From: a virus
Reading direction: 5' to 3' (one strand)
IMG/VR virus record: IMGVR_UViG_2716884767_000001
Coordinates: 103,510-167,509 of that record
DNA: 64,000 nt
The position numbers and the translations under genes are program-made. Position 1 is the stretch's first letter. Every line of letters starts with the position of its first letter. Shown here in pieces: positions 467 to 23,897 of this stretch. The notes under the pieces are model-generated. The model was not told the DNA's origin. It worked only from the letters and a program-made list of their open reading frames with translations, and searched no databases.

Positions 467-500
467 TTGACACAGTTTTTGTTTTATGATATACTAAATA
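467..500 (+). promoter_or_regulatory. Composite sigma70-like promoter overlapping a T4-type late promoter core
   Basis: TTGACA(467-472)-17 nt-TATACT(490-495), overlapping TAAATA(495-500). Confidence 0.75.
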
Positions 501-512
501 TCATTACATAGA

Positions 513-600
513 ACAAAGGACTCGAAAGATCGTAACCCTGCGTAGAATGTAAAATTCTTAGTCGAAAGAATTTCCATCCGCAGGTTTTTTATTGTCTGCG
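513..600 (+). ncRNA. Structured 5' leader (putative cis-regulatory RNA) sharing a 32-nt element with the psbA leader
   Basis: CCTGCG(537-542)/CGCAGG(579-584) outer stem, AAATTCTT/AAGAATTT inner stem, U-run 585-590; 513-544 recurs at 22651-22683. Confidence 0.45.
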
Positions 601-617
601 AGATACTTTTAAAAAAA

Positions 618-974
618 ATGATTAAATCAACAATCGCTGCAGTAGCAGCATCTCCATTCCTATTCGCTGGTGCAGCCTTTGCTGGTCCATACGTTAACTT
701 GGAAGCAAGTGGTTCTTATCCTGATGGTGCATATACATCTGGTGGACTAGAAGCAGTAGTTGGATATGAGGGAGCAACAGAGTCTGGAATTGGTTGGTAC
801 GTTTCTGGTGGTCCTACAGTGACTCACACAGAATCTGCTGATGAGTTCGGAGATGTTGAACTAGTAGGATACCTTGGTGGTTCTTATGATAAGTTCTACG
901 GAGAAATCTCTGGTGTTACTGCAGAAGACGATATTGACTGGTCTGCGAAGGCAGGTGTGAAGTTCACATTCTAA
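618..974 (+). CDS. Secreted/outer-membrane beta-barrel-like protein (cyanobacterial/cyanophage type)
   Basis: N-terminal signal peptide ending AAFA, alternating amphipathic strands, C-terminal KAGVKFTF beta-signal-like end. Confidence 0.65.
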   Translation: MIKSTIAAVAASPFLFAGAAFAGPYVNLEASGSYPDGAYTSGGLEAVVGYEGATESGIGWYVSGGPTVTHTESADEFGDVELVGYLGGSYDKFYGEISGVTAEDDIDWSAKAGVKFTF

Positions 975-994
975 TTTAAGTATCGCACTGATAC

Positions 995-1023
995 AGAGAC
1001 CTCTTTTTAGGGGTCTCTTTTTT
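995..1023 (+). terminator. Rho-independent terminator
   Basis: AGAGACCTCT/AGGGGTCTCT stem followed by T-run. Confidence 0.8.
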
Positions 1024-1072
1024 ATTGTCAAGATCTCCTAACAATAAATATTGTTACAGGAGGTTAAGACAA

Positions 1073-22590: not shown

Positions 22591-22624
22591 TTGACGGATA
22601 TGTAAAGTTATGTTATAATAAATA
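22591..22624 (+). promoter_or_regulatory. Composite early/late promoter of psbA
   Basis: TTGACG-17 nt-TATAAT(22614-22619), overlapping TAATAAATA. Confidence 0.8.
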
Positions 22625-22650
22625 ACGAAAGGTGGTGTTTTCCACACATT

Positions 22651-22800
22651 ACAAAGGACTCGAAAGGATCGTAACCCTGCGTACAACTGCTCTTAAACCG
22701 AGACCTATAGGCAGTCTAATACTTCGTCTCTCATATCCATCAGTGAAGGGATTGATGGAAATATAAGTTTCGCTCTACCCTTTGAGCCCTACTTATTCAA
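22651..22800 (+). ncRNA. Structured psbA 5' leader, probably including a PhotoRC-II-type motif
   Basis: ~180-nt UTR with GAGAC/GTCTC and TCCATCA/TGATGGA stems; such motifs are known upstream of cyanophage psbA; family identity not verified by covariance model. Confidence 0.55.
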
Positions 22801-22808
22801 ACGTCCTA

Positions 22809-23897
22809 ATGACAACTTCAAATTTAACACGCAGACAAGGCGGACTCCTACAGGGATGGCCAGAGTTCTGTGAGTGGGTAACATCAACTAACAACAGACT
22901 TTATGTTGGTTGGTTCGGTGTACTCATGATTCCATGCTTACTCACAGCAGCAGCATGCTTCATCGTTGCTTTCATAGCAGCACCTCCAGTCGATATCGAC
23001 GGAATCAGAGAGCCTGTAGCAGGTTCTTTCATGTATGGTAACAACATCATCTCAGGTGCAGTTGTTCCATCTTCAAACGCAATTGGTCTTCACTTCTACC
23101 CTATATGGGAAGCAGCAACCGTAGATGAATGGTTGTATAATGGTGGTCCTTATCAGTTAGTTATCTTCCACTTCCTTATTGGAATTTCTGCCTACATGGG
23201 TAGACAGTGGGAACTATCATACAGATTAGGAATGAGACCATGGATATGTGTAGCATATTCAGCACCTGTATCTGCAGCATTTGCAGTGTTCTTAGTGTAT
23301 CCTTTCGGTCAAGGTTCTTTCTCTGACGGAATGCCACTAGGTATCTCAGGTACGTTCAACTTCATGTTCGTGTTCCAAGCAGAGCATAACATTCTTATGC
23401 ACCCCTTCCACATGGCAGGTGTTGCAGGTATGTTCGGAGGATCTTTATTCTCAGCAATGCACGGTTCTTTAGTTACATCTTCTCTAATCAGAGAGACAAC
23501 TGAAACAGAATCACAGAACTATGGATACAAGTTTGGACAAGAAGAAGAAACATACAACATAGTAGCAGCACACGGTTACTTTGGTCGTCTTATCTTCCAG
23601 TATGCTTCTTTCAACAACTCAAGAAGTCTTCACTTCTTCTTAGCAGTATTCCCTGTAGTTTGCGTATGGTTAACCTCAATGGGTATCTGTACAATGGCAT
23701 TCAACTTGAATGGTTTCAACTTTAACCAATCAGTTGTTGATGTTAATGGTAAAGTTATCCCTACATGGGGAGATGTTCTTAACAGAGCAAACTTAGGTAT
23801 GGAAGTAATGCATGAAAGAAATGCACACAACTTCCCACTAGACCTAGCATGTGCCGAGTCTACAACAGTTGCTTTAACTGCTCCAAGCATTGGTTAA
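22809..23897 (+). CDS. psbA: Photosystem II D1 protein (Prochlorococcus type), no intron
   Basis: [42 protein letters not shown]; ATG 22809 (MTTSNL). Confidence 0.99.

Follow-up and report, generated by a model that had tools for sequence, protein, structure and literature searches.

Cyanophage psbA is the textbook example of an auxiliary metabolic gene. Concerning leader RNAs in general, attenuators and riboswitches of the ON type, to which the pbuE adenine riboswitch belongs, possess a weak closing stem whose 3' strand has a second possible partner, with which it builds a GC-rich stem ahead of a U-run, and shared operator hairpins that are read by one protein are known from the boxB elements of lambda nutL and nutR with the N protein and from the iron-responsive elements. 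T4-type phages reportedly contain promoter-early stem-loop (PeSL) cassettes, said to have been described by Arbiol et al. in 2010. Structured leaders described for cyanophages are PhotoRC-II (RF01717; PMC2864571), found upstream of psbA, and a number of orphan cis-regulatory motifs (manA, wcaG, glnA/Downstream-peptide), which are mostly from marine metagenomes and which, like the leaders considered here, are conserved structured 5' leaders of auxiliary genes of T4-like cyanophages.

The stretch of DNA analysed here (the window; 64 kb of a virus record of 210,333 bp) is from a T4-like cyanomyovirus and contains two copies of a short hairpin module, one in the leader of a gene for an outer membrane protein (OMP)-like product and one in the leader of psbA. 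Judged by the boundaries of the existing models, the module adjoins PhotoRC-II, the nearest named family, without belonging to it, and the closest parallel to the OMP leader appears to be an attenuator of the terminator/antiterminator type joined with a shared operator hairpin. In contrast to the orphan motifs mentioned above, the OMP leader has no Rfam match, and one hairpin module is common to two otherwise unrelated leaders. In the literature searched, neither the hairpin nor the OMP leader is described, although a catalogue of more than 10,000 viral RNA candidates from 2023 (PMC10690425) could include them. We class the module together with the OMP leader as an orphan structured leader type of cyanophage auxiliary genes, whose modularity is unusual and whose switch model can be tested.

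The sequence of positions 513-544, ACAAAGGACTCGAAAGATCGTAACCCTGCGTA, recurs at positions 22651-22683, identical except for one extra G (GAAAGG); direct sequence comparison thereby confirms the repeat on which the original prediction was built. While the identity over 32 bases holds, its extent had been set too short, since the similarity between the copies begins 7 nt further upstream, at CATTACA (502-508 and 22647-22653), with an insertion of 7 nt after this motif in copy 1. An ungapped search allowing up to three mismatches found the first copy only (none expected by chance), the gapped pattern exactly two copies in the entire 210,333-bp record, and a covariance model the same two sites in that record (E-values of 1e-16 and 1e-15).

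Promoters of the same build had been claimed to precede both copies, and this is the case, both being strong and of the sigma-70 type: TTGAC, a spacer of 17 nt and TATAnT overlapped by TAAATA, with 11 of 12 matches each. The composite promoter of the OMP gene (467-500, plus strand) consists of TTGACA (467-472), the 17-nt spacer, TG-TATACT (490-495) and the late-type CTAAATA (494-500), that of psbA (22591-22624, plus strand) of TTGACG, a spacer of the same length, TG-TATAAT (22614-22619) and ATAAATA (22618-22624); the TAAATA box overlapping each promoter is of the T4 late type. Among 103 unique homologous OMP upstream regions, TTGAC is present in 90 and a TA[AT]ATA box in 100, the end of the late-type box lying mostly 8-11 nt upstream of AAGG. 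Directly upstream of the -35 element TTGACA, 40 of these 103 regions exhibit the motif CTGGCAC (e.g., L004, 775-800), and some OMP leaders contain a palindrome, ACTGGCACATGTGCCAGTT, between late box and module.

The gene downstream of copy 1 (618-974, plus strand) encodes a beta-barrel protein of 118 aa with a signal peptide; its tentative identification as OMP-like proved correct, as it matches the Pfam family Phage_OMP (PF24653, E-value 6.5e-31), described there as 'cyanophage outer membrane protein like beta barrel'. In cultured phages the gene is annotated as DUF680 or T4-GC 241, and it is also named PhCOG173 (PMC6224464); in the literature, DUF680/PhCOG173, which is very widespread among cyanophages, is associated with host adaptation and with limitation of nutrients or phosphate. 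It is followed by an intrinsic terminator of the ordinary type, a 10-bp stem and a T-run (995-1028, plus strand). Downstream of copy 2, psbA, the gene for D1, starts at position 22809 (22809-23100, plus strand); it runs past this segment and is annotated as psbA in relatives. In P-HM2, psbA and the OMP gene both belong to the 'middle' expression class (PMC5082946, supplement), which is compatible with joint control of D1 and OMP, but not proof of it.

Both copies fold into the same irregular hairpin. In copy 1 (502-545, plus strand, including CATTACA at 502-508), the lower stem is formed by ACAAAGG (513-519) and CCUGCGU (537-543), with A.G and A.C oppositions, and is followed by an internal loop (ACU/UAAC), a top stem of CGA (523-525) and UCG (530-532), and the apical loop AAGA; in copy 2 (22647-22684, plus strand) the apical loop is AAGGA. 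An alignment of 125 distinct copies (75 from OMP and 50 from psbA leaders), most of which were gathered with patterns fixing parts of the core, describes the module as a three-helix hairpin of about 38 nt. Its outer stem passes into a purine-rich 2x2 mismatch (mostly A.G and A.C), an inner GG/CC stem and an asymmetric internal loop with ACY on the 5' side and UAAC, CCAU, CCCU, UCAC, UGCC or UACC on the 3' side; the top is a 3-bp CGA/UCG stem capped by four or five nt that form the apical loop, A[A/C]N(N)A. A reading of CGAAAG as a GNRA tetraloop was rejected, as it fails in the variants with five loop nucleotides.

That the shared element is a conserved RNA structure is borne out by its lower stem: the covariation score is 0.155, compared with at most 0.056 when the partner strand is slid, and it was reached by none of 500 shuffles. 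Single pairs are changed on both sides (CG in 95 and GC in 15 copies; AU in 87, GC in 16, and UA in 5; UA in 63 and AU in 16), and the covariation is present in the OMP as well as in the psbA context. All 125 aligned copies agree in the sequence GGACYCGAA..AUCG and in the CC that comes after it; this constancy is partly an effect of collection, because most copies were gathered with core-fixing patterns, and since the core never varies, the top stem is silent on covariation, for or against. Within one genome, the lower stem and the loop's 3' side need not be the same in both copies; in P-HM1-type genomes, for example, UAAC in the OMP-leader copy stands against CCAU in the psbA-leader copy. The near-identity of the copies in the present genome is therefore a feature of its lineage, and any reader of the module would be limited to the 5' loop side and the top, which, as far as the aligned copies go, are its universal part.

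Concerning its distribution, about 200 distinct copies of the module were found in viral contigs among the matches listed, all of them in two contexts, namely at the 5' end of the Phage_OMP (DUF680) leader and just upstream of PhotoRC-II in psbA leaders. A strict pattern yielded at least 124 copies in IMG/VR; among the matches listed, the OMP gene follows in 115 cases and psbA with PhotoRC-II in 9, and none of the 124 matches listed is in any other context. When loci were collected by means of the OMP protein, not the RNA, the module was present in nearly every informative case, the exceptions being leaders of the P-RSM4 type. When they were collected by means of the PhotoRC-II core, the broader hairpin family was present in 53 of 78 unique psbA leaders; in the remaining ones, the promoter or a 5' hairpin runs straight into PhotoRC-II. 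Complete genomes contain between zero and two copies: two in P-HM2, one (OMP only) in P-SSM3 and P-SSM4, and none in P-RSM4 and Syn9. A BLAST search against cultured phages revealed leader similarity in isolates from Prochlorococcus MED4, NATL1A/2A and MIT9515, and none in P-RSM4, S-TIM4, Syn9, Syn10 and S-RIM44. The module occurs across several cyanomyovirus genera, and its conservation reaches far beyond close relatives, as the original prediction required.

A search of representative genomes of 185,579 prokaryote species gave five pattern matches, three of them in phage contigs binned with cells and two by chance in coding DNA of high-GC or unrelated metagenome-assembled genomes. No copy was present in any host chromosome of this set, and because the matches are either phage-derived contigs or chance, the module is regarded as phage-specific. 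A candidate for a third context, found in L053 and L080 (AGGCAATACGAAATAGATCGTAAACC), is located within the terminal part of a coding gene, where it exhibits coding-like variation; it was rejected as a chance look-alike.

With these data, two readings of the repeat in terms of recombination can be weighed. The near-identity of both copies in this genome might suggest a functionless leftover of a duplication or recombination between the two leaders; however, about 200 distinct copies among the matches listed, a constant core, compensatory changes in the stem, and a fixed position in two unrelated leaders make this hardly credible, and conservation together with covariation would seem to bring it close to refutation. 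The module resembles PeSL cassettes in that promoter and stem-loop are repeated in variable regions of a T4-like genome, an arrangement that could allow recombination. PeSL junctions are, however, characterized by many copies and by a stem-loop upstream of an early promoter, whereas the module has at most two copies per genome, its stem-loop is situated 3' of the promoter within the transcript, and its compensatory changes are of the RNA type.

In the psbA leader, the order of elements is promoter, variable 5' hairpin, module, PhotoRC-II hairpin 1 with pseudoknot, PhotoRC-II hairpin 2, and a further hairpin. PhotoRC-II itself is found at positions 22672-22772 (plus strand) with 70.2 bits (gathering score 39). 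It is the only match of Rfam release 15 in the 64 kb, and for the leader of copy 1 (region 400-700) there is no match at E<=10. Copy 2 thus shares its leader with PhotoRC-II, whereas no PhotoRC-II follows copy 1. The models of Rfam and ZWD start inside the 3' strand of the hairpin and treat it as unpaired flank: positions 1-14 of the 96-position Rfam consensus are unpaired, and the ZWD alignment (97 columns, 19 pairs) has the same extent. The share of the module in the match is limited to model positions 1-12, all unpaired, which correspond to its 3' strand. Because this is the only overlap, the shared hairpin lies outside every model checked, in agreement with the earlier statement that the shared part was not recognised as a named family; only its last 12 nt reach into the PhotoRC-II flank.

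Beyond the 3' end of the Rfam model, a further hairpin is found at positions 22772-22787 (plus strand; GCUC-UACCCUUU-GAGC). Its loop, CCCUU, is complementary to a conserved AAGGG (22746-22750) that belongs to the hairpin 2 loop of PhotoRC-II. Complementarity of the form CCCU(U):(A/G)AGGG exists in 31 unique relatives, including one case of AAGG with CCUU, and CCCUU:AAGGG may represent a candidate kissing-loop contact outside the model. In P-HM2, the annotated 'hypothetical protein' PHM2_211 of 44 codons is located wholly within the psbA leader, comprising module and PhotoRC-II (L006, 840-974), and is probably not a gene.

At the 5' side of the module, the psbA leader possesses a hairpin with GUGG/CCAC (22631-22647, plus strand), and relatives carry hairpins of other sequence at the same place; in many psbA leaders it is GUGAGG..CCUCAC (L006, 790-806; cf. 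22631-22647). The 3' arm of the latter is presumably similar to the conserved core of Yfr1, a Prochlorococcus sRNA that targets porin mRNAs.

The presence of this hairpin also bears on a passive role of the module. Stem-loops at the 5' terminus stabilise bacterial mRNAs, the ompA 5' hairpin of E. coli being such a shield, and the module might likewise protect highly expressed mRNAs from RNases that depend on access to the 5' end (RNase E/J, RppH-type access), with neither a factor nor a switch involved. Only a few nt separate the hairpin of the OMP leader from the inferred start of transcription, and the composite promoters of both genes are strong, as would be expected of a shield. Yet psbA leaders already have a different hairpin at their 5' end, the coding-strand fold of the module is weak (about -6.7 kcal/mol) and contains conserved mismatches, and a stem would suffice for protection, whereas in the alignment it is the top and the 5' side of the loop that are constant in every copy. 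On these grounds, we consider a purely protective function unlikely.

The OMP leader continues after the module in a different way. In 140 distinct module-type leaders, which were aligned, the order is P3, the conserved CAUCC, P4 (CGCAGG(G) with (C)CUUGCG), the likewise conserved AGA, and an A-rich start region in which no Shine-Dalgarno sequence is found in these leaders. In the window, P3 is situated at positions 552-573 (plus strand); its loop, AGUCGA (560-565), contains the conserved GUCG, and the hairpin is followed by CAUCCG, P4 and GCGAGA (575-603, plus strand), of which CAUCCG and GCGAGA are conserved. P4 is formed by CGCAGG (579-584) and UCUGCG (595-600), the latter overlapping GCGAGA (598-603), and has a U-rich loop with U6 at 585-590. 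Across the 140 leaders, seven of the eight P3 pairs are changed on both sides and the GUCG of the loop is invariant. P4 is paired in 95.8% of the cells, and its compensatory changes comprise CGUAGG with CUUACG in L082 and L112 and paired insertions that lengthen the stem; in the P-RSM4-type leader, P4 is formed by CUGCUGG and CUCAGCA. With 132 G.U and 0 A.C cells, the strand of P4 is fixed.

Other OMP leaders differ in their 5' part. In those of the Synechococcus-phage type (L134, L146, L153 and L155, type B; L211, Syn9), P3 with its GUCG loop and CAUCCGCAGG..CUGCGAGA are kept, a Shine-Dalgarno sequence (GAGGU) is gained, and the module is replaced by GUGAUGAAGCCUCAACUACUCGC.., of which CCUC and CUCGC could pair with GAGG and GCGAG in a possible anti-Shine-Dalgarno arrangement; the leaders named have no U-run. 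P-RSM4 (L210) possesses a third kind of 5' part. Three further candidates in the OMP leader were rejected: a pairing of the hairpin top CUCGAAAG with CUUGCGAG after P4 reaches seven of eight positions here and is broken without compensation in the variants GGGAUCG, GGAAUCG and GGCCCG; a kissing contact between UCGR of the P3 loop and UCGA of the hairpin is not compensated in CCCGA variants, and psbA leaders have no P3; and the AUG of a small upstream ORF in the P3 loop is missing here and in many relatives.

For CGCAGG, two mutually exclusive pairings had been predicted, and both exist. The downstream one is P4. The upstream one, with CCUGCG (537-542), is however not the simple hairpin that had been assumed, but a terminator-like long-range stem (537-590, plus strand) that encloses the hairpin at 552-573 (P3) and is followed by U6 (585-590). 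The switch-like arrangement attributed to the downstream stem is upheld insofar as both pairings are conserved as possibilities, but compensatory changes occur in the downstream pairing only and not in the upstream one. The rival stem is possible in 90% of the cells in the 140 leaders; it exhibits no compensatory change, and the observed values were reached by all 500 shuffles. As its complementarity follows from two conserved strands, it is without positive covariation evidence.

Indirect arguments for the rival stem nevertheless come from four observations. A U-run of at least four follows directly after CGCAGG in 129 of the 140 module-type leaders, compared with 2 of 19 leaders of the Synechococcus-phage type, which retain P3 and P4 but contain neither the module nor an upstream CCUGCG; the 11 of 140 leaders without the U-run have yet retained P4. 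According to the predicted energies, RNA that ends at CGCAGG, as it would with the polymerase on the U-run, favours the rival stem over the closed hairpin in 129 of 140 leaders (by 5.3 kcal/mol on average), whereas in the full leader, which includes the P4 partner, the two folds are nearly balanced (-0.3 +/- 4.4 kcal/mol). The hairpin stem of OMP leaders has three mismatches (A.C, A.G, A.C), and these coincide with positions that are paired in the rival stem. In the psbA-specific variants (CCAU/CCCU), for which there is no rival partner, these positions are Watson-Crick pairs in 22/22, 10/22 and 17/22 copies, compared with 19/75, 11/75 and 34/75 in OMP leaders. However, mismatches of the OMP type also occur without a rival partner in 28 of 50 psbA copies, and G-to-A changes in CCCUG (CCCUA in L141, L162, L165, L204 and L223) are uncompensated; only L223 is informative in this respect, because the other four stem from a search in which CGCAGG was fixed.

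Like an intrinsic terminator, the rival pairing combines a GC-rich stem (CCUGCG:CGCAGG) with a subsequent U-run (U6). Its stem does not form a compact hairpin, as it encloses 36 nt including P3, and a branched structure in which 7 bp close a loop of about 36 nt would be unusual among intrinsic terminators; a scan with a terminator consensus flagged the P4 hairpin (579-600) as terminator-like, but not the rival long-range stem. Mapped transcript ends for these leaders were not found in the literature searched. The stem of the hairpin and P4 each exclude the rival stem, and all three are conserved. The OMP leader would thus agree with attenuators and ON-type riboswitches in that the 3' strand of its closing stem has a GC-rich alternative with a U-run, which is predicted to be favoured in the nascent RNA; it differs from them in that the putative terminator is branched and that the covariation support lies on a third pairing, P4, which is made after the U-run.

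Such a layout raises the question of a small-molecule riboswitch, in which the hairpin, or the entire four-helix OMP leader, would act as an aptamer whose ligand closes the weak lower stem and blocks the terminator, in the manner of the pbuE adenine riboswitch. The sharing of the 3' strand of the closing stem with a terminator-like stem and U-run corresponds to the textbook, conserved unpaired nucleotides are situated beside covarying stems, and other orphan riboswitch-like motifs exist in cyanophages (PMC2864571). However, there is free variation on the 3' side of the internal loop (UAAC, CCAU, CCCU, UCAC, UGCC), which a binding pocket would not usually permit; in addition, the hairpin is of very small size, and neither gene suggests a ligand. 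The psbA leaders contain no expression platform after the hairpin, and in the psbA leader of the window neither a terminator-like feature nor a switch-like continuation follows the module. Furthermore, PhotoRC-II was judged not to be a riboswitch by Weinberg et al. (PMC2864571). A metabolite-binding function appears quite unlikely.

Concerning the strand on which the module acts, the minus strand gives the better fold of the isolated hairpin in 116 of 125 copies, a consequence of the excess of A.C oppositions (200 cells) over G.U pairs (47) in the lower stem. Three conserved A.C/C.A oppositions (511-545 and 22649-22684) correspond to G.U pairs on the other strand, or to A+.C wobbles at low pH. 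The strand bias would be expected if the hairpin belonged to an antisense RNA over both leaders, and antisense transcripts are known to cover psbA 5' UTRs in Synechocystis; alternatively, it might act as DNA, as a PeSL-like recombination or regulatory site near promoters that was spread by gene conversion, and near-identical copies with differing flanks would suggest recent exchange of this kind. Yet the module has a plus-strand promoter on one side and, on the other, structures of the plus strand that it adjoins or overlaps (P4, with its G.U cells and no A.C, and PhotoRC-II), neither a minus-strand promoter-like site positioned to transcribe it nor a U-run after it on the minus strand was found, and the outer stem contains wobble pairs that are possible on the plus strand only. 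Furthermore, there are just two copies per genome, always 3' of a promoter, unlike PeSL repeats, and the competing pairing with CGCAGG explains much of the A.C excess. For these reasons (position, lack of a suitably placed minus-strand promoter-like site, wobble pairs and competing pairing), the module is taken to be read on the coding strand. As the competing pairing leaves part of the strand asymmetry not fully explained, an antisense or DNA function is kept as a minor rival, although a very improbable one.

The reading that we tentatively prefer, with a little less than even confidence, is that of a portable, cis-acting RNA hairpin on the coding strand, whose top is read by a factor and which serves as the antiterminator arm of an attenuator in the OMP leader. 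In its OFF fold, the 3' strand of the hairpin (CCCUGYG) would pair with CGCAGG(G) 40 nt downstream and close around P3, followed by the U-run. If the hairpin were held shut, RNA polymerase would read on, and in the resulting ON fold CGCAGG would pair with the next CUUGCG to form P4, locked ahead of the A-rich start region. The constant top would be the recognition site of a trans-acting factor common to both leaders, more likely a phage or host protein than a metabolite. In psbA leaders, which have no such terminator, the hairpin might merely recruit the factor, for stability or translation.

Regarding shared operator hairpins, the same hairpin with a top constant in 125 of 125 aligned copies is found in two leaders. 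As in boxB and the iron-responsive elements, the hairpin is short, its top is constant while its stem covaries, and it is present in few mRNAs per genome, just 3' of promoters; its arrangement would permit joint control, whereas the loop sequence of the module is different. In its boldest form, such control would constitute a post-transcriptional regulon of two genes in cyanomyoviruses infecting Prochlorococcus, in which a sensor hairpin, read by a protein or ligand, couples the synthesis of D1 and the phage OMP and works as the antiterminator of a new ON-type attenuator in the OMP leader, or in which, alternatively, protonation of the A.C oppositions senses light-driven changes of cytoplasmic pH; we regard this as speculative and unlikely.

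As to what these findings mean, psbA leaders often carry an extra hairpin that is absent from the models, and the same hairpin heads the leader of a second widespread cyanophage gene. The OMP leader, which has the anatomy of an attenuator, constitutes a new RNA family, and PhotoRC-II is extended on both sides. With its constant top, the hairpin of about 38 nt can be used as a pull-down bait, and clear mutations can be designed. A reader common to both leaders, should there be one, would tie photosynthesis genes to envelope genes at the post-transcriptional level, the first such connection known in a marine virus.
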